DNA of 64,000 nt from an uncultured Candidatus Saccharibacteria bacterium (GTDB taxonomy: Bacteria; Patescibacteriota; Minisyncoccia; Minisyncoccales; Staskawiczbacteraceae): assembly GCA_964427585.1 (NCBI GenBank), contig CAYRVC010000001.1, positions 34,220-98,219 of the forward strand. Reading direction: 5' to 3'. The notes under the pieces were generated by a model. The model was not told the origin of the DNA and did not search any database. It saw only the letters and a list, made by a program, of their open reading frames with translations. This document shows, piece by piece, positions 876 to 50,641 of this stretch. The position numbers and the translations under genes were made by a program. Positions within the stretch are counted from its first letter, which is position 1; each line of letters starts with the position of its first letter.

Positions 876-1529
876 ATGGCTCACAAAGTCAATCCAAAAT
901 CATTCAGAATAAGGGGAATGGAAGACTGGAATACACGGGGTTTTTACGGAAAAAAAATGTTCCTGCATTTGAAGGAGGATTTTTTGATCAGGGATTTTTT
1001 AAAGAAAAGGCTGGCTGAAGCATCGGTGGCAGGCATTCAAATAGAGCGTTCAGCCAACAAAGTGAATATAATAATTGAAACAGCCAGGCCAGGCCTCATC
1101 ATAGGAAGGGGAGGAGGCGGAGCTGAAGCATTGAAAAAAGAAACAGAAAAGATGATTAAAAAAAGCATTTCGCAAAAAAGCGTTTTGGAATTAAGAATAG
1201 AGATAAGGGAAATAAAAGACCCCTGGACATCGGCTTCCCTGGTGGCCCAGATGGCGGCCCAGCAGATAGAAAAAAGGATACCATTCCGTCATGTTTTGAA
1301 AAAAAGCATGGAAAGGGTAATGCAGAATAAGGATATGAAGGGCGTAAAAATGGAACTGTCCGGCAGGCTGAACGGCGTGGAAATAGCAAGGAAAGAGTGG
1401 TTAAAACAGGGCAGGCTTCCAAGAAATACCATAAGGGCGGACATTGATTACAGTCAAAGCGAAGCCCATTGCACCTACGGCGCGATTGGAATAAAGGTGT
1501 GGATATATAAAGGAGATAAATTTGAATAA
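876..1529 (+). CDS. rpsC: 30S ribosomal protein S3
   Basis: [14 protein letters not shown] start, a KH-type GLIIGRGG motif, and operon position. Confidence 0.95.
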
Positions 1530-1537
1530 ATATTGCC

Positions 1538-1948
1538 ATGGGAATACTAATGCCAAAAAAAGTTAAACACAGGAAATGGCACAGAGGAAAGTCGAAAGGG
1601 ATTGAAAACCGCGCGACCGATCTTAATTTCGGAATTTTTGGATTGAAGGCCTTGGAAACCAAATGGATAACCGCCCGCCAATTGGAATCGGCAAGGAGAT
1701 GCATAATAAGATATTTTAAAAAAGGCGGAAAGCTCTGGATAAGAATTTTTCCGGATAAGCCGGTAACAGCCAAGGGGGCGGAAGTGGGAATGGGCGGAGG
1801 AAAAGGCGCTGTCGACCATTATGTTTACCCCGTAAGGCCGGGCAGGATTATTTTTGAAATAGACGGAATCAAGGAAGATATGGCCAGAGAGGCTTTGAGG
1901 GGAGCGGCAAACAAGTTGCCTATCAAAACAAGATTTATTAAAAAATAG
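1538..1948 (+). CDS. rplP: 50S ribosomal protein L16
   Basis: [14 protein letters not shown]...ARQLESARR matches L16. The true start may be the ATG at 1550. Confidence 0.93.
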
Positions 1949-1950
1949 AC

Positions 1951-2136
1951 ATGAAAGCAAGCGAATTGAGAAAAAAAGACAAAAAAGAGCTGGAAAAGCA
2001 GGCTCAAGACTTGCGGAAAAAATTGGCTGACATCAGGTTTAAGTTTTCTTCCAACAAGTTGAAAAACGTAAAAGAAATAAGCAATTCAAAAAAAGAAATA
2101 GCAAGAATTTTAACTGTTTTAAAAGAAATAAAATGA
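1951..2136 (+). CDS. rpmC: 50S ribosomal protein L29
   Basis: 61 aa; [24 protein letters not shown] matches the L29 pattern; operon position. Confidence 0.9.
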
Positions 2137-2363
2137 AGAAAAAATTAGCAGGAATTGTGGTTTCAGACAAGATGAAAAAAACAGTAGTGGTTGAGGTTGA
2201 AAGGATAAAAGAAGCTAAAAAGTATAAGAGAAGGTATAAAGTCCACAAAAAATATAAAGCCCACGACGAAAACCAGGAATACCATGCCGGGGATAAGGTT
2301 TTAATAGAAGAAACAAAACCTTTGTCAAAGGACAAAAGGTGGAAAGTAATACAAAAAATTTAA
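2133..2363 (+). CDS. rpsQ: 30S ribosomal protein S17
   Basis: [18 protein letters not shown]...[27 protein letters not shown] matches S17. There is an ATGA overlap with rpmC. Confidence 0.93.
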
Positions 2364-2367
2364 AAAT

Positions 2368-2736
2368 ATGATACAGTTAAGGTCAATGTTAAAAGTGGCT
2401 GACAACTCCGGAGCAAAAATTATCCAGGTTATTAACGTTCCGGGCGGGACTCGCCGGAGATACGGCGGCTTGGGGGATATAGTAGTGGCCGCGGTAAAGA
2501 AAGCCGAACCCAGAAAACTGGTTAAAAAACACGAAAAAGTGAAAGCGGTCATCATAAGGCTGAAAAAAGAGTATAAAAGAGCCGACGGATCGTATATCCG
2601 TTTTGACGACAACGCGGCTGTGATTTTAGGCGACGGAAAGCTTCCCAAGGCAACCAGGATTTTCGGGCCCACTGCCAGGGAATTGAAAGAAAAAGGCTTT
2701 GATAAAATAGCGACGATGGCCAGCGAATTGTTGTAA
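2368..2736 (+). CDS. rplN: 50S ribosomal protein L14
   Basis: [17 protein letters not shown]...IRFDDNAAV matches L14. Confidence 0.95.
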
Positions 2737-2857
2737 CCCCCACACCATAACGAGCCATTTTTTGGGGGTGTAATAGTATTAATTTTATAACACAGACGTA
2801 TGCTGAACAAATCAATTTTTTTAAAAATTTGATTTGGTGGCTCGTTTGGTGTGGGGG
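2737..2857 (+). promoter_or_regulatory. Structured 120-nt element with about 20-bp GC-rich terminal inverted repeats filling the rplN-rplX gap
   Basis: CCCCCACACCATAACGAGCCA (2737-2757) is complementary to TGGCTCGTTTGGTGTGGGGG (2838-2857) with a 1-nt bulge. An inner hairpin pairs 2808-2820 with 2823-2836. Confidence 0.6.
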
Positions 2858-3162
2858 TGAAAATAAAAAAGGGAGACAATGTTTTGGTGCAGTCAGGGAA
2901 AGACAGGGGTAAAAGCGGAAAAGTGCTTAGAGTTCTTGTTAAAAGAAACAGGATTTTGGTTGAAGGCGTAAATTTCAGAAAAAAACACGTAAGGCCGAAA
3001 AAAAGCGGGGAAAAGGGACAGATTGTGGATGTTTTATCGGCCTTGGATATTTCCAGCGTTAAAATAATCTGCCCCCGATGCGGGAAAGCGGCCAGGGTGG
3101 GTTATAAAATTGAAAATGAAAAAAAATTAAGGGTTTGCAAAAAATGCGGCCAGCAGATATGA
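2857..3162 (+). CDS. rplX: 50S ribosomal protein L24 (C-terminal CxxC..CxxC ribbon)
   Basis: The GTG at 2857 gives MKIKKGDNVLVQSGKDRGK, a canonical L24 N-terminus. The ORF track starts 6 nt earlier, at 2851. Confidence 0.92.
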   Translation: MKIKKGDNVLVQSGKDRGKSGKVLRVLVKRNRILVEGVNFRKKHVRPKKSGEKGQIVDVLSALDISSVKIICPRCGKAARVGYKIENEKKLRVCKKCGQQI

Positions 3163-6336: not shown

Positions 6337-7614
6337 ATGTGGCACGAAAAAATACTATTTCTTTTCAGAAACAAAGAATTAAGGAATAAAATTTTATTTA
6401 TAATTTTCCTTTTTGTTGTTTTCAGAATCGCCGCCAATATCCCCATTCCCGGAATCGGAACTGAAAATTTAAGGAAATTTTTTGCCGAAAATCAGGTTTT
6501 CGGCCTTTTAAATGTTTTTGCCGGCGGAGCTTTGAGCAATTTTTCAATAATTCTGCTGGGGCTCGGGCCTTATATCACAGCCACCATCATCTTGCAATTG
6601 CTTACCATGATTTTTCCGGCGCTGGAAAAAATGTACAAAGAAGAAGGCGAGGCCGGCCGCCATAAATTCAACCAATATTCAAGATTACTGACCATTCCCC
6701 TGGCTTTTTTTGAAGGATACGGAATGCTGACTGTTTTCCAAAGGCAAGGGATAATTTCCGGCCTTTCTCCAGAAATTTTATTGAGCTCCGTCATCACCAT
6801 TGCCGCGGGAGCTATGTTTTTGATGTGGCTGGGAGAAATTATTTCCGAGCAGGGCATGGGGAACGGCATTTCTCTTTTGATATTTGCGGGAATAGTGGCC
6901 AATCTTCCGATAAACATATTCCAGACATTCGTAAGCTGGGATCCTTCCAAAATCCCTTCTTATCTGCTGTTTTTTTTCCTGTCTTTGGTTATAATCGCCG
7001 GCGTTGTTTTAATTACGGAAGCCCGCAGGAACATACTTGTTTCCTACGCCAAAAGGGTGAGGGGGTCAAAGATGTACGGCGGGTTCTCGACATATCTGCC
7101 TTTGAATGTAAACCCGGCCGGAGTCATTCCTATTATCTTCGCCCTTTCAGTTCTTTTGTTTCCGGGGATGATTGCTAACTTTTTGGGAGGGGTTCCGGGG
7201 GCAGTGGGGAATGTCGCCAACTCCATGGGAAATTTTTTCAATAATATTTGGGTCAACGGCATTTTGTATTTTATTCTTGTGATTATGTTTACCTATTTTT
7301 ACACTGCCGTTACTTTTGACCCGAAAACCATAGCTGAAAATCTGCAAAAAATGGGCGGGTTTATTCCAGGCGTAAGGCCGGGCAGGCCCACGGCTGATTT
7401 TTTAAAGCATATTTTAAACAGGGTTTTGTTCACCGGCGCCATTTTTCTGGCCTTAATAGCCGTTCTTCCGTCTATTGTTGCCGGACTTACCGGGGTAACA
7501 GGCTTCACTTTTTTGATAGGAGGAACATCGCTTTTAATAGTTGTAAGCGTTGTGCTGGAAACAGTGCGGCAGATAAACGCCCAGCTCGAGATGAGGGAAT
7601 ACGACACTTTTTAA
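6337..7614 (+). CDS. secY: Preprotein translocase subunit SecY
   Basis: 425 aa, multi-TM; IPIPGI, GGALSNFSIILLGLGPYITATIILQLL, GISLLIFAGIV; operon position. Confidence 0.95.
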   Translation: MWHEKILFLFRNKELRNKILFIIFLFVVFRIAANIPIPGIGTENLRKFFAENQVFGLLNVFAGGALSNFSIILLGLGPYITATIILQLLTMIFPALEKMYKEEGEAGRHKFNQYSRLLTIPLAFFEGYGMLTVFQRQGIISGLSPEILLSSVITIAAGAMFLMWLGEIISEQGMGNGISLLIFAGIVANLPINIFQTFVSWDPSKIPSYLLFFFLSLVIIAGVVLITEARRNILVSYAKRVRGSKMYGGFSTYLPLNVNPAGVIPIIFALSVLLFPGMIANFLGGVPGAVGNVANSMGNFFNNIWVNGILYFILVIMFTYFYTAVTFDPKTIAENLQKMGGFIPGVRPGRPTADFLKHILNRVLFTGAIFLALIAVLPSIVAGLTGVTGFTFLIGGTSLLIVVSVVLETVRQINAQLEMREYDTF

Positions 7615-9519: not shown

Positions 9520-9529
9520 CAAAGGCGCA

Positions 9530-9567
9530 AAGTGAGGTTTTTTCACTCGAGTGAAAAAACCTCACTT
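9530..9567. repeat. 38-nt perfect palindrome, copy 1 of the TTTTTTCACTCGAGTGAAAAAA family
   Basis: AAGTGAGGTTTTTTCACTCGAGTGAAAAAACCTCACTT is its own reverse complement. Confidence 0.95.
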
Positions 9568-9616
9568 TAATCGTCATTTTTATGTTATAATAAAAATAAG
9601 CATAAGAAAATAAAAA

Positions 9617-10159
9617 ATGAAAGACTCGGTGATAAAACAAATATTATTGCATTTATATGATTGTATAGATTATGGTTTCAGTTACAGGGTGAAAAAAGGT
9701 CTTTTTATTGATAGTTTATTTCCCGGCGGCTGGAAAAAATTTAGCAAAGAAGAAATAAAAGAAGGCATTAAATATTTAAAAACAACTAATTTTATTACAA
9801 GAAAAGAAGGGTATGATGGTTCGGTGATTATTTCATTAACCGAAAAAGGCAAACTTCGAGCGCTTAATATAAGATTCAAAAGATTAAATTATAAAAAAGA
9901 GCCTTGGGATAAAAAATGGCGAATGGTTGCATTTGATATTCCAAACACGCATAGAAAGGGAAGGGATGCTGTGAGGTATCGCTTGCGCACCGCAGGATTT
10001 TATGAATTGCAGGAAAGTATACTTATATATCCTTATGATTGCGAGAGTGAAATTAGAGATTTTATAACGCTGTTTAAACTCGAAAAATACGTCCGTTTTG
10101 CATTATTGGATTTTATTGATGGAGAGGATTATCTTGTAAAATTATTCAAGCTGGTTTAG
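9617..10159 (+). CDS. PaaX-like / Cas2-fold putative transcriptional regulator
   Basis: The N-terminal half is wHTH-like. WRMVAFDIPNTHRKGRDAVRYRLRTAGFYELQESILIYPYD matches the PaaX-type middle-domain pattern. The gene is visibly AT-rich. Confidence 0.55.
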   Translation: MKDSVIKQILLHLYDCIDYGFSYRVKKGLFIDSLFPGGWKKFSKEEIKEGIKYLKTTNFITRKEGYDGSVIISLTEKGKLRALNIRFKRLNYKKEPWDKKWRMVAFDIPNTHRKGRDAVRYRLRTAGFYELQESILIYPYDCESEIRDFITLFKLEKYVRFALLDFIDGEDYLVKLFKLV

Positions 10160-10193
10160 GTATGTTTTTTCACTCGAGTGAAAAAATATACCT
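10158..10193. repeat. 36-nt palindrome (1 mismatch), copy 2 of the TTTTTTCACTCGAGTGAAAAAA family
   Basis: AGGTATGTTTTTTCACTCGAGTGAAAAAATATACCT. It overlaps the TAG stop of the preceding gene. Confidence 0.95.
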
Positions 10194-10256
10194 ATTGCAC
10201 ATTTATTTTTGTGGTAGAATAAAATAAGAATATTTTTAAATTTAAATCTAAATTTT

Positions 10257-11012
10257 ATGAAAAATTTGATTGCGGGGAATTGGAAGATGAATCCGGAAAC
10301 CGAAAAAGAAGCTAAGGCTCTTTTTTTAAAAATTAAAAAAGGAATAAAAAATATAAAGAATGCCGAGGTGGTTTTGTGTCCGCCGTTTTTGTATTTGCCC
10401 GTGTTGGCCAATATTCAGCCTGGCAAGATTTTTTTAGGTTCGCAGAATTGCTTCTGGGAAGAAAAAGGCGCTTTTACCGGCGAAATTTCAGCCTTAATGT
10501 TGAAGGATTTTAAGGTAAAGTACATTATTTTGGGGCATTCTGAGCGCCGGAAATATTTTAATGAAACAAACGAGCTAATTAATAAAAAAATAAAAAAAGC
10601 ATTGGATGAGGGCCTTAAAGTTATTTTTTGCGCAGGCGAGACGGCTGAGGAGAAAAGTAGCGGAAAAAAATTAGATGCTTTAGGCCGTCAGCTTAGGGAA
10701 GGGTTAAAAAATATTCCAAAAAACAAAATAAATGGCATAAGCATTGCCTATGAACCCGTCTGGTCGATTGGAACAGGGAATAATTGTTCCGTTGAAGAAA
10801 CGATGACTTCTGTTTTATCCATAAGAAAAATAATCGCGGATTTATACGGCAGGAAATCAGCTACCGGAATGAGGATTCTTTACGGCGGAAGCGTAAACAG
10901 CAAGAATGCAGGCCACTATATAAAGGAATCTAAGGCCAACGGCCTGTTGGCAGGAGGAGCTTCAACGAACGCGGAGGAGTTTATAAAAATTGTAAAATCT
11001 TCAGAACCTTGA
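10257..11012 (+). CDS. tpiA: Triosephosphate isomerase
   Basis: IAGNWKMN, ILGHSERR, AYEPVWSIGTG, YGGSV. Confidence 0.93.
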   Translation: MKNLIAGNWKMNPETEKEAKALFLKIKKGIKNIKNAEVVLCPPFLYLPVLANIQPGKIFLGSQNCFWEEKGAFTGEISALMLKDFKVKYIILGHSERRKYFNETNELINKKIKKALDEGLKVIFCAGETAEEKSSGKKLDALGRQLREGLKNIPKNKINGISIAYEPVWSIGTGNNCSVEETMTSVLSIRKIIADLYGRKSATGMRILYGGSVNSKNAGHYIKESKANGLLAGGASTNAEEFIKIVKSSEP

Positions 11013-11169
11013 GTTACGAAATGCCTTACGAATTATTTTATTTTGGATTGCGGGCGAGACTTTGCAAAAATTTTGAGGCATATACGGAGTATTCTGCCTC
11101 AAAATTTTTACAAAGGCGCAGCCCAAGCCAAAATATAAATAATTTAAGCGCATTTTGTAACTCAAGGTT
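11005..11169 (+). repeat. Family-A nested-hairpin element (MITE-like), copy 1, about 165 nt
   Basis: Near-identical to 44273-44434. Terminal inverted repeats are AACCTTGAGTTACGAAATGCC and their complement. The central hairpin is AAAATTTTGAGGCA/TGCCTCAAAATTTT. Confidence 0.9.
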
Positions 11170-17226: not shown

Positions 17227-17371
17227 AATACGAATTTTATAATTTTTAATTTTATAATTTTGCAAATAATTTTTTAATAACAGAATTTTTAAACACGACA
17301 GCGTTGTTTAGAAATTTAAAAATTAGAGAATTACTTAAAAATTAAAAATTGGAAATTAAAAATTTAGCAAT
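17227..17371. repeat. AT-only imperfect long inverted repeat in the rpsD-rpoA spacer
   Basis: Arms built from AATTTTTAATTTTATAATTTT-type units flank a central AAACACGACAGCGTTGTTT. Confidence 0.5.
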
Positions 17372-18335: not shown

Positions 18336-18686
18336 ATGAGAAAGCTTAATAAAGGGAGAAAATTATCAAGGAAAAAAGGGCCGAGGGAGGCGCTGTTGAG
18401 AACACTGGCAAACAGCCTCTTTTTGCGTGAAAAAATAAAAACAACCGAGGCCAAGGCCAAAGAATTGAGGATTTTAGCCGAGAAGATAATCACCAAAGCT
18501 AAAAAGAACGATCTTTCCGGCCGAAGAGCGATAGCCAAAACATTGGCGCCGGCCATGGCGAAGAAAGCCACTCAAGACATGGCGGGAAGATATAGCCAAA
18601 GGCAGGGTGGATACACCAGAATTATAAAACTGGGCCCCCGGCATTCTGACGGAGCCAAAATGGTTATAATAGAATTTGTGAAATAA
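18336..18686 (+). CDS. rplQ: 50S ribosomal protein L17
   Basis: LNKGRKLSRKKGPREALLRTLANSLFLREKIKTTEAKAKELR...GGYTRIIKLGPRHSDGAKM. Confidence 0.93.
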   Translation: MRKLNKGRKLSRKKGPREALLRTLANSLFLREKIKTTEAKAKELRILAEKIITKAKKNDLSGRRAIAKTLAPAMAKKATQDMAGRYSQRQGGYTRIIKLGPRHSDGAKMVIIEFVK

Positions 18687-21778: not shown

Positions 21779-21817
21779 CAAAAAAAACAACCCCGCCTAG
21801 ACGGGGTTGTTTTTTTT
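21779..21817. terminator. Bidirectional rho-independent terminator
   Basis: A-run, CAACCCCG-loop-CGGGGTTG, then T-run. It sits between convergent genes. Confidence 0.8.
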
Positions 21818-21824
21818 GGTTGAT

Positions 21825-24036: not shown

Positions 24037-24072
24037 TGATTTCAAAATTGCCCGCGGGCAATTTTGAAATCA
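24037..24072. repeat. 36-nt perfect loop-less palindrome centred on CCGCGG
   Basis: TGATTTCAAAATTGCCCGCGGGCAATTTTGAAATCA is its own reverse complement and begins right after the stop codon. Confidence 0.95.
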
Positions 24073-31023: not shown

Positions 31024-32277
31024 ATGCTTCAATCAAAATTATTCTATAAAACAGCGAAAGAAAAGTCGGCCGATACCGAATCTATTTCACATGAATTGCT
31101 GACCCGCGCCGGGTTTGTTGACCAGCTTATGGCCGGGGTTTACACATTTTTGCCGCTGGGTTTTATGGTTTTGAAAAAAATTGAAAATATAATAAGAAAA
31201 AATATGGAAAACGCGGGCGGACAGGAAGTTTTAATGCCGGTTTTACAGCCGAAAGAAAACTGGCAGAAAACAGGCAGGTGGGAAACCCTGGACATACTTT
31301 TTAAAATAAAAGCCAGCGGCGAAAAAGAATATGCCTTAGGGCCTACCCACGAAGAAGTTATTTCTCCTCTGGCAAAGAAAATTATTTTTTCATATAAGGA
31401 CCTGCCTTTTTATCTTTTCCAGATACAGACAAAATTCAGAAACGAGCCAAGGGCGAAATCCGGCATTCTAAGGACGCGGGAATTTTTAATGAAAGACCTT
31501 TATTCTTTTCACGCAGACCAGGGAGATTTGGATAAATACTATGAAAAGATGCTAAAAGTTTATTTCAATATTTTTAAAGAATGCGGCATTTACAAAGGAG
31601 GAAAAAATCCGCATACTTACAGAACGCTGGCTTCCGGAGGAAGTTTTTCAAAATATTCAGACGAGTTTCAAACAATTACTGAAGCTGGAGAAGACATAAT
31701 TTATATCTGTAAAAAATGCCAGACTGCCGTCAATAAGGAAATTATAAGCGAAAATAAAAATTGCCCCAATTGCAAATCCGCAGATTTTGAAGAAAAAAAG
31801 GCGATTGAGGTGGGGAATATTTTTAAACTGGGAACAAAATATTCTTTGCCCTTTGATTTAAAATTCAGGGATAAGGACGGATCGGAAAAACCGGTTTTAA
31901 TGGGCTGTTACGGAATAGGGATTTCAAGGCTGATGGGCGCCGTTGCGGAGGCAAGTCACGACAACAAAGGAATAATCTGGCCTAAAAATATTGCTCCATT
32001 TTCAGCGCATTTGATTCTCGTGGAAAACAGCCGAAAGGTAAAACAGGCGGCTGATAAGATATACGACAATTTTCAAAAACAAAAAATTGAAATATTATAT
32101 GACGACAGGCAGGGAAAGTCGGTTGGAGAAAAATTTGCGGTTTCGGACTTGATTGGAATTCCGCATAGGATAGTGGTGTCTGAAAAAACACTGGCAAAAA
32201 ATTCGGTCGAAGTAAAGGAAAGGACAAAAAACCAGGCAAAATTAGTTAAGATAAAAGAATTAATAAAATTATTCTAA
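31024..32277 (+). CDS. proS: Proline--tRNA ligase, short form without an INS editing domain
   Basis: HELLTRAGFVDQLMAGVYTFLPLG, FRNEPRAKSGILRTREFLMKDLYSFH, GCYGIGISRL. A CxxC..CxxC insert lies between motifs 2 and 3. Confidence 0.9.
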   Translation: MLQSKLFYKTAKEKSADTESISHELLTRAGFVDQLMAGVYTFLPLGFMVLKKIENIIRKNMENAGGQEVLMPVLQPKENWQKTGRWETLDILFKIKASGEKEYALGPTHEEVISPLAKKIIFSYKDLPFYLFQIQTKFRNEPRAKSGILRTREFLMKDLYSFHADQGDLDKYYEKMLKVYFNIFKECGIYKGGKNPHTYRTLASGGSFSKYSDEFQTITEAGEDIIYICKKCQTAVNKEIISENKNCPNCKSADFEEKKAIEVGNIFKLGTKYSLPFDLKFRDKDGSEKPVLMGCYGIGISRLMGAVAEASHDNKGIIWPKNIAPFSAHLILVENSRKVKQAADKIYDNFQKQKIEILYDDRQGKSVGEKFAVSDLIGIPHRIVVSEKTLAKNSVEVKERTKNQAKLVKIKELIKLF

Positions 32278-32284
32278 TTAACCT

Positions 32285-32412
32285 AATTATTCTAATTGTT
32301 CTAATCAATGTCTAATTTCTAATGACTAATTCAAAAACCCGTTTCAGACATTAGACATTTTATCATTTAGATTTGATTAGAATAATTAGAGTAATTAGAA
32401 TAATTAGACATT
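32285..32412 (+). repeat. Family-B long-hairpin element (MITE-like), copy 1
   Basis: Highly similar to 38525-38661. The left arm is made of TTCTAAT-type units and the right arm of ATTAGA-type units, which are mutually complementary. Confidence 0.9.
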
Positions 32413-36360: not shown

Positions 36361-36431
36361 GCGGGTATGGTTCAATGGCAGAACATATCCTTCCCAAGGA
36401 TATGATACGGGTTCGATTCCCGTTGCCCGCT
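36361..36431 (+). tRNA. tRNA-Gly (anticodon CCC)
   Basis: Manual cloverleaf: acceptor GCGGGTA/TGCCCGC, anticodon loop TTCCCAA, T-arm ACGGG-TTCGATT-CCCGT. No encoded CCA. Confidence 0.9.
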
Positions 36432-36457
36432 CAAAAATTTGCGCGCAAATTTTTGAG
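36430..36457. repeat. 28-nt perfect loop-less palindrome centred on GCGCGC
   Basis: CTCAAAAATTTGCGCGCAAATTTTTGAG overlaps the tRNA-Gly 3' end. Confidence 0.9.
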
Positions 36458-36496
36458 CGAGGCTCGCCCGCCCCGAGGTATTATTATTTTAAGTTG

Positions 36497-36568
36497 CCGG
36501 AGTAGCTCAGTGGCAGAGCAACTCTTTCGTAAAGAGTAGGCCGCGAGTTCGAATCTCGCCTCCGGCTC
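36497..36568 (+). tRNA. tRNA-Thr (anticodon CGT)
   Basis: Acceptor GCCGGAG/CTCCGGC, anticodon loop TTCGTAA, T-arm GCGAG-TTCGAAT-CTCGC. Confidence 0.9.
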
Positions 36569-36579
36569 ATTGTGCGACA

Positions 36580-36625
36580 ATAGCGGTCAAAAATCTCACG
36601 ATCGTGAGATTTTTGACCGCTATTA
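36580..36625. terminator. 46-nt perfect palindrome centred on CGATCG, likely terminator of the tRNA pair
   Basis: AATAGCGGTCAAAAATCTCACGATCGTGAGATTTTTGACCGCTATT followed by ATTTCTTCTTTTT. Confidence 0.65.
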
Positions 36626-37836: not shown

Positions 37837-38516
37837 TGATAAAATTCGATAAAGTAACAAAAGTTTACCCCCCCGACAGCCTTGTGCTGGAAGATATTTC
37901 TTTTGAAATAAAAGAAGGGGAGTTTGTATCTATAGTGGGAAAATCCGGAGCCGGAAAAACAACCTTAACCCGCCTGCTTTTAGGGCTGGAAGAGCCGACC
38001 TCCGGCCGTGTGTATTTTGAAGGCGTAAATGTCCATGAAGCCAGCCCGCCCGAACTCCAGGCTATCAGGAGAAAAATAGGGGTGATCTACCAGGATTATA
38101 AGCTCCTTCCGGCAAAAACAGTTTATGAAAATGTCGCCTATATAATGGAAGTTGAAGGCAAGGAAAGCAGTGATATTTCAGGATATGTCAATAACATTTT
38201 AGACATAATCGGATTAAGCGGAAAAATGAATAATTTTCCAAAAGAGCTTTCCGGCGGGGAACAGCAGAGGCTGGCCATTGCCAGGGCGCTGGTTAAAAAT
38301 CCCTTGGTGATTGTGGCCGACGAGCCTACCGGCAACCTTGATCCTTACAACACATATGAAACCATTTCCCTTTTAGAGAAAATGAACAAAGCCGGAAAAA
38401 CAGTAATGCTTCTGACCCATGACAGGGAAGTGGTGAATAAGCTTGGCAAAAGGGTCATTACTTTAGATAGCGGAAGAATCGTAAGGGACGAAGATGAAGG
38501 AAGATTTATAATATAA
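37836..38516 (+). CDS. ftsE: Cell division ATP-binding protein FtsE
   Basis: Walker [13 protein letters not shown] signature LSGGEQQR, Walker [18 protein letters not shown] overlap with prfB. Confidence 0.9.
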
Positions 38517-38524
38517 ATTATTCG

Positions 38525-38661
38525 AATTATTCTAATTGTTCTAATTATTCTAATAAATGCCTAATTTCTAATGCCTAATTCAAAAATGGTTTTTAGACAT
38601 TAGACATTTTGTCATTGGGATTTGATTAGAATAATTAAAATAATTAGGTTAATTAGACATT
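38525..38661 (+). repeat. Family-B long-hairpin element, copy 2
   Basis: Aligns to 32285-32412 with one extra TATTCTAAT unit and a few substitutions. Confidence 0.9.
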
Positions 38662-44272: not shown

Positions 44273-44434
44273 AACCTTGAGTTACGAAATGCCTTACGAA
44301 TTATTTTATTTTGGCTTGCGGGCGAGCCGAAGTAAAAATTTTGAGGCATATACGGAGTATTCTGCCTCAAAATTTTTACAAAAGCGTAGCCCAAGCCAAA
44401 ATTAAAGAATTTAAGGCATTTCGTAATTCAAGGT
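44273..44434 (+). repeat. Family-A nested-hairpin element, copy 2, about 162 nt
   Basis: Same orientation and near-identical to 11005-11169. It ends 8 nt before the ftsZ ATG. Confidence 0.9.
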
Positions 44435-48873: not shown

Positions 48874-49350
48874 ATGAATAATATCAAAAAAACAAAAGGT
48901 TTTACCATAATAGAAATCGTGGTGGTTATCGCCATAATCGCAGTTTTGGCTGGAATTGTTATGGTTAACGTAAGCTCTTTTACCAAGAAAGCCAAGGTGA
49001 CGGCGGCAAGGGCCGATGTCCGCCAGCTGGTAATAGCAATGGAGCTTTATCGCGCGAAAAATGGACAACTTCCTCCTCTTGGGGATTCATGTTCGGCTTG
49101 TTCCAATCCCTGCGACGCCGGTGTCTGGAACGCGGTTGTAGACGCCATGATAAACAGCGAAGACGGAAACAGGGGGATGTATATAGACCCCTGGGGCCGC
49201 CCATTTTGCTATGATGACAACGACAAAGTTCCCGCCGGGCCCTGCAGTCCTGTTTTTTCAATGGGAGAAGACGGAGTGAATAATACGGGGACAGGATGCG
49301 CCATTTCAGGCGACGATATAGGCCAAATCCTGCCTTACGGCGGGCCGTAA
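48874..49350 (+). CDS. Type IV pilin / type II pseudopilin-like protein
   Basis: Prepilin N-terminus KGFTIIEIVVVIAIIAVLAGIV (G/F cleavage-methylation motif with E at +5). Confidence 0.8.
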   Translation: MNNIKKTKGFTIIEIVVVIAIIAVLAGIVMVNVSSFTKKAKVTAARADVRQLVIAMELYRAKNGQLPPLGDSCSACSNPCDAGVWNAVVDAMINSEDGNRGMYIDPWGRPFCYDDNDKVPAGPCSPVFSMGEDGVNNTGTGCAISGDDIGQILPYGGP

Positions 49351-49372: not shown

Positions 49373-50641
49373 ATGAACATATTAAAATCACGCGCCAGAA
49401 TCGTTTTTGCAAAAGGAAAAGAAATTCTGGATTCACGGGGAAAACCAACAATAGAAGTTGAATTAAAAACCGATAAGGGAATTTTTTTTGCTTCGGTTCC
49501 GGCAGGCGTTTCCACTGGAAACGATGAAGCGTCAGAATTAAGGGATGATGACGGCAGGGGAGTGAAAAAAGCCATTGAAAACATAAACAAAATTATCGCT
49601 CCGAAGTTAAAAGGAAAAAATCCGGCAGAACAAAAAGAGATTGATGAAATAATGATTAATCTTGACGGCACGGAAAATAAATCAAAATTGGGAGCCAACG
49701 CCATGCTAGCCGTTTCAATGGCCGCGTGCCGGGCGGGAGCGGGCGCTAAAAAAATTCCGCTTTATCAGCACATTTTTAAGTTCGGGGGATCTCCGACATC
49801 CCCCGAAATAGAAATGGGGGGGTGTCGGAGATCCCCCGAACTTCCGTTTCCGATGTTTAATATAATTGAGGGCGGAAAACATGCGGATAATGATTTGGGT
49901 ATCCAGGAATTTCTGCTGGTTTGCCAAAAGAAAACGTTTTTGGAAAATTTAATCCTGGGAAATAAAATTTTCGGCGTTCTTAAAGAAACCATTGAAAAAA
50001 ATCATGGACCGGATGTAAGGCTGGGAGACGAGGGCGGATTCGCCCCTGATATTTCAAAAACAGAACAGGCATTGTATTTGTTAAAAAACGCGATAGCAAA
50101 AGAGCCGGACGCGAAAATCGCTTTGGATGCGGCTTCCTCGCAGTTTTATAAAAACGGAAAGTATGGAATAGACGGAGAGGAATTTACAAGGCAAGGCCTT
50201 TTGGAATTTTACGGGAATTTAATAAATAATTTTCCGATTATTTCCATTGAAGACCCGTTTTCAGAAGATGACTGGCAAGGATTTGAGTTTATTATGCGAC
50301 AAATGGGAGATAAAATATTGGTGGTTGCGGACGACCTTACGACAACTAACGCAAAAAAGATAAGGGAGGCAAAAAGCAGGTCGGCCTGCAATGCCGTAAT
50401 TATAAAACCGAACCAGATTGGCACGGTAAGCGAAACGATTGAGGCGATAAAAACAGCTAAACAAGCTGGCTTTAAAATCATAATCAGCCATAGGGCAGGG
50501 GAAACAGCGGATACATTTATTGCCGATTTGGCAGTAGGGGCTGAGGCCGATTTTATAAAATCAGGTTCTCCCTTAAAAGAAGAAAGAATGGTAAAATATA
50601 AAAGATTGCTGGAAATAGAAAAAGAATTAACATATGGCTAA
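49373..50641 (+). CDS. eno: Enolase (carrying a 20-aa in-frame insertion)
   Basis: ILDSRGKPTIEVE, GANAMLAVSMA, NIIEGGKHADN, DDLTTTN, IKPNQIGT, SHRAGET. Confidence 0.93.
   Translation: MNILKSRARIVFAKGKEILDSRGKPTIEVELKTDKGIFFASVPAGVSTGNDEASELRDDDGRGVKKAIENINKIIAPKLKGKNPAEQKEIDEIMINLDGTENKSKLGANAMLAVSMAACRAGAGAKKIPLYQHIFKFGGSPTSPEIEMGGCRRSPELPFPMFNIIEGGKHADNDLGIQEFLLVCQKKTFLENLILGNKIFGVLKETIEKNHGPDVRLGDEGGFAPDISKTEQALYLLKNAIAKEPDAKIALDAASSQFYKNGKYGIDGEEFTRQGLLEFYGNLINNFPIISIEDPFSEDDWQGFEFIMRQMGDKILVVADDLTTTNAKKIREAKSRSACNAVIIKPNQIGTVSETIEAIKTAKQAGFKIIISHRAGETADTFIADLAVGAEADFIKSGSPLKEERMVKYKRLLEIEKELTYG
49781..49840. repeat. 60-nt GC-rich hairpin inserted in-frame in eno
   Basis: TTCGGGGGATCTCCGACATCCCCC, loop GAAATAGAAAT, then GGGGGGGTGTCGGAGATCCCCCGAA. 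The stem is about 24 bp with one G-U pair. Confidence 0.9.

Follow-up and report, generated by a model that had tools for sequence, protein, structure and literature searches.

The 64-kb window analyzed here, which is the whole stretch of contig CAYRVC010000001.1 under study, contains an enolase gene (eno) with a long hairpin inside its coding sequence. The eno open reading frame (ORF) encodes 422 aa. Its product was 100% identical to the NCBI entry 'phosphopyruvate hydratase [Candidatus Staskawiczbacteria bacterium]' and matched PDB enolases at E ~1e-109. Pfam assigned Enolase_N to residues 14–134 and Enolase_C to residues 157–420. The hairpin sits between these two domains, in the linker of the N-terminal domain and the barrel. 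The coordinates of all features are given in Table 1.

The two inverted-repeat arms of the hairpin are 27 nt each, are complementary at 26 of 27 positions (96%) and enclose a 12-nt apical loop. Counted from the first to the last arm base, the element is 66 nt long and specifies 22 aa. It is in frame, occupies codons 136–157 and encodes K136-FGGSPTSPEIEMGGCRRSPE-L157, including the stretch FGGSPTSPEIEMGGCR. RNA folding gave a minimum free energy of −59.2 kcal/mol (z = −8.5), and none of 200 shuffled sequences folded equally well. This was the best 80-nt fold of the window; the runner-up reached −37.6. An identical 3.3-kb stretch including the hairpin was found on another NCBI contig that differs in size (L021, GCA_016181665.1; related loci are given L numbers and proteins P numbers below), which argues against an assembly artefact. 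The eno hairpin is real. A preliminary description of this DNA had already placed a perfect hairpin in frame in eno, but at 49781–49840; the arms reach 3 nt farther on each side. The mirrored minus-strand ORFs it pointed out (49715–49927 and 49765–49992) are present in the ORF list and are mirror by-products of the palindrome. Its wording that the segment is strikingly GC-rich was too strong: the 60 nt have a GC content of 62%, about 2.3 sd above the mean of the window (39.5%, sd 9.5%), and 34 other stretches of the window were listed at 62% or more.

The hairpin is built from a 33-nt unit, AAGTTCGGGGGATCTCCGACATCCCCCGAACTT, present twice in inverted orientation; this unit was defined in full from copies in JGI metagenomes. 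The unit is an imperfect palindrome in the 20–40-nt range (3 × 11 nt) with a 13-bp stem and a 7-nt loop, CTCCGAC. It folds with −21.2 kcal/mol under RNA parameters and −13.6 under DNA parameters.

The window enolase was aligned with 120 homologs, all of them enolases of the candidate phyla radiation (CPR) with 60–71% identity. In the relatives, 'HI' and 'P[LF][PA]MFN' are separated by 12 residues, for example AELAGVGSPLKI. The window enolase has a net excess of 11 aa over them, which is 33 nt or one unit. Deleting the 33 nt of the left unit yields HIFEMGGCRRSPELPFP, which has the same length as the loops of L019 (YIAELGGVGDPPKLPLP) and L008 (HISILAGVGSPLTIPLP). The earlier proposal of a single 60-nt insert, whose clean excision restores an ordinary enolase, was ruled out by this alignment. 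Such an excision would keep just FK-L where the relatives have 12 residues; the element is instead an inverted doublet of the 33-nt unit, and the left unit alone is extra.

Base for base, the right unit can be aligned with the single unit of L019, GAATTGGGGGGTGTCGGAGATCCCCCCAAACTT; outside it, the identity of the two eno genes is just 66% at the DNA level and 62% at the protein level. Run lengths of G7/C5 in the window versus G6/C6 in L019 shift the local frame, giving GGCRRSPE versus GGVGDPPK. The L019 enolase has a canonical loop, and its single unit lies at 7238–7270 (AELGGVGDPPKLPLPSFN). L023 also has a loop of canonical length (AGVRDPLK) with a perfect 9-bp hairpin, TTAGCGGGT-GTCAGAG-ACCCGCTAA, and L008 retains a decayed unit at this site. 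The presence of a unit there in L019 and L023, and decayed in L008, indicates that the right unit is resident coding sequence of the canonical loop. Other relatives carry other structures at the enolase loop. L001 has a lineage-specific doublet (GGATGTCCGACATCC / GGATGTCGGACAT). L004, L005 and L006 have perfect palindromes of 40–44 nt, again lineage-specific doublets, and L002 and L003 have a different, multi-copy palindromic element. In L007 and L022, the loop is lengthened not by a hairpin but by tandem repeats, of 8 nt at L007 6144–6197 (CCAGAAAA) and of 7 nt at L022 3391–3444 (AAATTCA). Hairpins in most relatives together with tandem repeats in L007 and L022 indicate that the enolase loop is a hotspot of length variation, usually holding a hairpin unit.

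The 3D structure of the enolase was modeled using AlphaFold 2 (mean predicted local distance difference test score, pLDDT, 89.4; predicted template modeling score 0.90). Residues 138–158 were modeled as coil, residues 141–151 had pLDDT below 50, and the remainder was confident. The insert aligns with a gap in human enolase, near ADLAGNPD-L-ILPVP. In the model, the doublet is a disordered surface linker loop compatible with the enolase fold.

Copies of the unit were sought with an exact scan for the 20-mer GGGGGATCTCCGACAYCCCC in one genome per GTDB species, and also in JGI metagenomes. The GTDB scan gave three matches on one contig (CAIWKF010000035) of another Ca. Staskawiczbacteria metagenome-assembled genome. 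There, the single hairpin [T/C]TCGGGGGATCTCCGACATCCCCCGAA stands at three places around a 248-aa ORF: 10 nt before its start, inside it in frame (KTGGSPTPPELL), and 4 nt after its stop. A match in L009 (Streptomyces) was set aside as chance on the organism alone. Those in L016–L018 were also attributed to chance: the full 27-nt unit was unmatched there at up to 5 mismatches, and the GC content was 59–73%.

The 248-aa ORF scored 39.7 bits with Pfam Y1_Tnp (cut-off 23). With the NCBIfam models, it scored 39.1 bits for NF047646 (REP_Tyr_transpos) versus 18.2 bits for the insertion sequence (IS) model IS200, NF033573. The ORF is a Y1/HUH transposase and resembles the tyrosine transposases associated with repetitive extragenic palindromic sequences (REPs), the RAYTs. 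At E ≤ 1e-10, the RAYT-like protein had 778 relatives in the database; where a source was named, which was seldom, the label was Patescibacteria, Parcubacteria, Staskawiczbacteria or 'bacterium'. The HUH motif was present in all 120 listed homologs and YxHxN[PR] in 98 of the 120. In many of them, a short variable peptide of the G[SC][PR]T[PS] type lies between EIWKRRRDR..EKK and RDK.VEILAF, and a loose 4-residue unit-like motif was found in 60 of the 120. The variable peptides GSPTP and GCRTP correspond to the two orientations of the unit loop (SPT versus CRT). The RAYT gene seems to host its own hairpin. In many of the homologs P0121–P0240, the unit-like peptide, in one orientation or the other, follows the N-terminal strand region and precedes the HUH motif, with apparent doublets in P0169 and P0194.

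Further units adjoin such genes in other genomes. L012 and L014 contain the full 33-nt unit within and adjoining RAYT-like ORFs; in L014, a unit follows the stop directly. A unit also lies in frame in a 2323-aa ORF beside the L014 RAYT gene, and it equals the copy inside the RAYT gene across the 33 nt, the last base excepted. In L013, an open frame of at least 428 aa, which runs off the contig end, contains one unit in frame and also a second, variant unit. With a covariance model made from 15 units, the known units were recovered, new variants emerged at L012 963–995 and 1019–1051 and at L013 1405–1436, and the L023 enolase loop was also found. The two L012 variants form an inverted pair after the RAYT-like stop. 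The L012 RAYT-like gene (1055–2229, minus strand) is seemingly split into an N-terminal frame (1726–2229) and a C-terminal frame (1055–1408), and an ORF between the halves (1457–1714) resembles a GIY-YIG nuclease (YVYILKS..YVGIT).

One RAYT homolog, P0125 (242 aa, precomputed Pfam PF01797), has the HUH motif (NHIHLL) and YIHANR. Its longest contig is 298,688 bp, which is the value recorded for the window enolase, P0001. From this equal value, P0125 appears to be encoded on the window's own 298,688-bp contig; within the 64-kb window itself, tblastn found no RAYT homolog. A Logan contig (L020) encodes a protein identical to P0125, with units 16 nt upstream of the gene, internal in frame (KFGGSPRPPEI) and 5 nt downstream.

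Collectively, the unit was found in frame in the unrelated genes of enolase (window and L019) and RAYT-like proteins (L011, L012, L014 and L020) and in the ORFs of L013 and L014. The eno units had 0 mismatches to units of other genomes in the 21-nt core. All six frames of the unit are free of stop codons, and it occurs in different frames of intact ORFs. Owing to this openness and to a length that is a multiple of three, it can sit inside genes without breaking them. Sequence evidence associates the unit family with a Y1/HUH transposase from the RAYT/IS200 superfamily, one found widely among Patescibacteria.

Given the observed anatomy of the doublet, a dispersed unit that accompanies the transposase gene and lies in frame in unrelated ORFs, and the linker position of the insert, we consider it probable that the eno element is a RAYT-associated palindromic repeat resembling REPs and REP doublets forming hairpins (REPINs), an inverted doublet translated as a linker loop. 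A single unit in reverse orientation would already have encoded the canonical linker loop in this enolase lineage. In the lineage of the window, a second, forward 33-nt unit would then have been added just upstream, separating a TTT codon from a GAA codon. This addition would have made the long hairpin with a net gain of 11 residues, and the whole doublet would be translated as the disordered surface loop K136–L157. The insert is presumably neutral for the enolase. The unit would be mobilized as single-stranded DNA by a RAYT-like enzyme. Action on single-stranded DNA hairpins is established for the TnpA of IS200/IS605 and proposed for RAYTs (PMC6006769, PMC3116915).

Several results weigh against this reading. 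The RAYT assignment is partial, since the 39.1 bits with NF047646 lie below the equivalog cut-off of 80. The eno units fit those of other genomes better (0 mismatches in the 21-nt core) than those around the RAYT gene assigned to the window's own genome (2–3 mismatches each, from L020). Copies are few where they were sought. In the window, neither the covariance model (E ≤ 1) nor an 18-mer search allowing up to 3 mismatches found any unit beyond the eno doublet. The exact 20-mer scan, which diverged copies escape, gave just three matches in the representative genome from GTDB, all at the RAYT gene. The covariance model found units solely in the eno loop across ~170 kb of enolase neighborhoods from 11 genomes. 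Among predicted proteins, no second doublet was found in two weak searches: a doublet-peptide search gave 2 word candidates and 0 matches, and an exhaustive HMMER search with the 31-aa loop peptide returned one spurious repetitive protein, P0241. Tens to hundreds of mostly extragenic copies were not seen: the window has 2 units, and many of the known copies are intragenic. The unit contains neither a GTAG or CGTC tag nor its complement, and its 5′ flanks are A-rich (AAAG/AAAA). Six-frame openness was at most suggestive by shuffling (p ~0.06; 0.16 with palindromic shuffles). Finally, the resident unit is of canonical length and may stem from insertion plus loss, from conversion or from an origin in situ.

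The left arm might instead have arisen within the locus, by an inverted duplication (template switch) of the resident hairpin without any transposase, and the likeness to other units would then reflect common descent. This would fit a native right arm with a near-perfect mirror on its left (26 of 27 bases). It would also fit L004, L005 and L006, whose lineage-specific doublets have perfectly complementary arms and no other copies within 4–21 kb, as well as the low number of units and the lack of a second doublet in the searches above. However, the extra segment is exactly one unit of 33 nt. The inner foot of the left unit reads ..ATCCCCCGAA (GAA), as in the dispersed consensus, whereas ..ACCCCCCCATTTC would be expected from mirroring the inner flank of the right unit. 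Because the extra DNA is exactly one unit and has its own inner foot, insertion of a whole unit is favored over mirror duplication. Identical units in unrelated genes and around the transposase gene of other genomes also argue against a purely local event, which we regard as unlikely.

A bolder version of the REP-like reading is that the enolase hairpin is an old, vertically inherited resident unit, kept by paired substitutions across Staskawiczbacteria lineages and repeatedly doubled into REPIN-like hairpins whose sequences are lineage-specific. Along with the in-frame unit that recurs at one position of the RAYT gene in many homologs, this would point to a RAYT/REP system domesticated in ultra-small genomes. 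We hold this to be doubtful. If it were true, hairpins in coding sequences might control the expression of eno and RAYT, or protein loops might be safe harbors where intergenic space is scarce.

Selection on the structure itself is a related but separate explanation, in which the eno hairpin is kept for a function in RNA or DNA, such as translation tuning, mRNA decay or as a RAYT binding site, and is more than selfish DNA that the gene tolerates. A hairpin unit occurs at the same loop in enolases just 62–70% identical, and the stems differ by paired changes: TTAGCGGGT/ACCCGCTAA in L023, GGGAC/GTCCC in L004 and TTTGTGG/CCACAAA in L001, versus TTCGGGGGAT/ATCCCCCGAA. The covariation score was 0.138 versus 0.095 in shuffles, and 14 of 500 shuffles reached 0.138. 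The unit-like peptide at one gene position in many RAYT homologs (loose motif in 60 of 120) points the same way. Yet the covariation is modest, and the alignment includes related copies. Other close relatives lack the hairpin or have tandem repeats (L007 and L022), or a decayed unit (L008). The arms are perfectly complementary as DNA with no G–U pairs, indicating recent copying rather than selection at the RNA level. No Rfam family matched the hairpin at threshold; the sub-threshold matches were Plastid-psbJ-5 (36 versus 53 bits) and miRNA precursors. Taken together, a selected structure is quite improbable as the main explanation.

Programmed translational bypass is known from T4 gene 60 and mitochondrial byp elements. 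A stable GC-rich hairpin within an AT-rich gene might suggest such skipping, or an intron-like excision, in eno. However, the element is in frame without a stop codon, and the possible take-off and landing codons are unmatched (AAG/TTC before, CTT/CCG after). The unit is open in six frames and present in different frames of intact ORFs, and the loop would be ~9 residues too short without the hairpin. Both bypass and intron were rejected as very improbable. An assembly artefact is hardly credible and was also rejected: chimeric reads can yield palindromes, but two NCBI contigs of unequal size carry the identical sequence, the unit is present in JGI, ENA, Logan and NCBI assemblies, and the reading frame is kept everywhere.

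Table 1. Positions of eno and of the parts of its hairpin in the 64-kb window.
Feature	Position	Strand	Basis
Enolase (eno) ORF, host gene	49373–50641	+	Pfam domains, PDB matches, AlphaFold 2 model
Inverted doublet, probably REPIN-like (long hairpin)	49778–49843	.	Arms 49778–49804 and 49817–49843; fold
Left unit, extra, probably REP-like: AAGTTCGGGGGATCTCCGACATCCCCCGAAATA	49778–49810	+	31 of 33 bases as in L012/L014 consensus; covariance model 52.3 bits
Apical loop/spacer: GAAATAGAAATG	49805–49816	+	ATA-GAA-ATG is the counterpart of the relatives' native I-(A)-E-L codons; compared with L019 ATT GCT GAA TTG
Right unit, resident, reversed: GAAATGGGGGGGTGTCGGAGATCCCCCGAACTT	49811–49843	-	Site and orientation of the single units of L019 (7238–7270) and L023 (3390–3422); covariance model 46.3 bits

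The surroundings of eno vary among the loci. In the window, a type IV pilin-like gene (N_methyl/T2SSG, 48874–49350) lies directly upstream of eno, and L006 has the same arrangement. Several relatives have a gene of the Trp_repressor family upstream instead, either adjoining eno or separated from it by a few small ORFs. Genes for a ThaI-like restriction enzyme and an N6/N4 DNA methylase (L023 4236–5781) separate eno from a phosphoglycerate mutase-like gene in L023. At the remaining loci, the window included, eno directly adjoins this mutase-like gene or is separated from it by at most ~140 nt.

Other repeats were observed in the window and its relatives. The multi-copy element of L002 and L003 reads TCATTGCGAGG..CGACGAAGCAATCT..AGATTGCTTCG..CTCGCAATGACG and yields peptides of the form SLRGG.SRRSNL...EIAS..LAMT. 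It occurs at L003 3443, 10388–10422, 17298–17354 and 18391–18448 (at least 4 within 21 kb) and at L002 773–832, and it is in frame at the very same enolase loop in P0021, P0037 and P0042. A second palindromic family, ..ACCCCCACACC(A)NAACGAG ... CTCGTTNTGGTGTGGGGGT.., forms a 130-nt hairpin of −55.5 kcal/mol in the rplN–rplX spacer (window 2733–2862). A shorter form at L007 6228–6305 is in frame in a second enolase loop (GGAHIHPHTKRDD...SRSGVGVN), and insert peptides of this type are also present in P0075, P0098 and P0107.

The window also contains an intergenic palindromic repeat similar to miniature inverted-repeat transposable elements. Its two copies (11023–11148 and 44290–44415) are 92% identical over 126 nt, with the sequence AATTATTTTATTTTGG.TTGCGGGCGAG...GTAAAAATTTTGAGGCA / TGCCTCAAAATTTTTAC...CAAGCCAAAAT. 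Perfect or near-perfect zero-loop palindromes of 32–46 nt lie between ORFs at 9529–9568, 10157–10194, 21779–21818, 24037–24072, 36428–36459 and 36579–36624. Two of them share the core TTTTTTCACTC/GAGTGAAAAAA, and two flank a tRNA-Gly/tRNA-Thr pair (36361–36568). These palindromes may be terminators or another repeat family. AT-rich inverted arrays of TCTAATTATTCTAAT-like words are also intergenic (32258–32408 and 38516–38657).

If the eno element is REP-like as proposed, repeats of the REP/RAYT type extend into the CPR, where intergenic DNA is scarce, and are there largely intragenic and translated as extra loops. This would explain GC-rich peptides rich in Gly, Pro, Ser and Arg in CPR protein predictions, such as FGGSPTSPE, GGCRRSPE, GVGDPP and GISDIP. 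It also cautions those who annotate or assemble genomes that hairpins of this type are real. A housekeeping enzyme would offer a natural case of a surface linker absorbing selfish DNA. The transposase family, with its 778 relatives, and the candidate cognate DNA hairpin make a pairing that is testable biochemically.

Among known systems, IS200/IS605 elements have a Y1 HUH transposase gene with hairpins near both ends, and their transposase acts on single-stranded DNA hairpins (PMC6006769). In IS200/IS605, the two hairpins are distinct and in the same orientation, whereas the eno element pairs one unit with its own inverted copy and encloses no gene. Palindrome-associated transposable elements (PATEs) are palindrome-only derivatives of IS200/IS605, and the eno element differs from them in the same way.

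Rickettsia palindromic elements (RPEs) are ~100–150 bp long, have tens of copies per genome and no associated transposase, and occur in Rickettsia only (Ogata et al. 2000, 2002; summarized in PMC10969869). Like RPEs, which are translated as an extra surface peptide, the eno unit is a palindromic repeat in frame in unrelated genes that it does not destroy. Unlike RPEs, the unit is only 33 nt and the doublet 66 nt, it is associated with a Y1 transposase, and it resides in Ca. Staskawiczbacteria. The preliminary description had compared the hairpin with RPEs tolerated in surface loops and was aware of no CPR equivalent. The core of that comparison holds, as the search for other copies it suggested found them in other genomes, both intergenic and in frame in unrelated genes, but the closest kind is the REP/REPIN–RAYT system with intragenic REPs rather than RPEs alone. 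Equivalents do exist in the CPR, on contigs of the Staskawiczbacteria type and tied to the Y1/HUH RAYT-like transposase.

REPINs are inverted REP doublets that form hairpins and are associated with RAYTs (Bertels & Rainey 2011, PMC3116915). The eno element shares with REP/REPIN–RAYT systems the short imperfect palindrome, the inverted pair with a short spacer, the flanking of a Y1/HUH transposase gene and a unit sequence that differs between lineages (PMC3116915; Bertels et al. 2017, PMC5581495). It differs in lying within coding sequence rather than extragenic, in an apparently low copy number and in lacking the GTAG tag; tags are defined as GTAG/CGTC at the hairpin foot (PMC3733652, PMC6006769). 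The transposase also scores below the curated RAYT cut-off and carries an in-frame unit itself, and the host belongs to the CPR/Patescibacteria.

Intragenic REPs were reported from Opitutus terrae, Rickettsia conorii (where they equal RPE-4 and RPE-6), Thauera and others, with dimers encoding 20–30 aa (Di Nocera, De Gregorio & Rocco 2013, PMC3733652). The same paper describes 'REPtrons', in which REPs flank a RAYT gene, also for species that lack large REP families (PMC3733652). Like the intragenic REPs, which are in-frame monomers or dimers in known proteins, the eno doublet is in frame and encodes 22 aa. Those REPs carry GTAG/CGTC tags and are from Proteobacteria, Verrucomicrobia and similar groups; in contrast to them, one eno unit replaces the native loop at equal length, and the eno site is common to many relatives. 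No paper linking RAYT or REP to CPR/Patescibacteria was found in the literature. As an intragenic repeat of the REP/REPIN-like type, linked to a RAYT-like transposase, the eno element probably belongs to a known kind, one for which no report from this group of bacteria was found.

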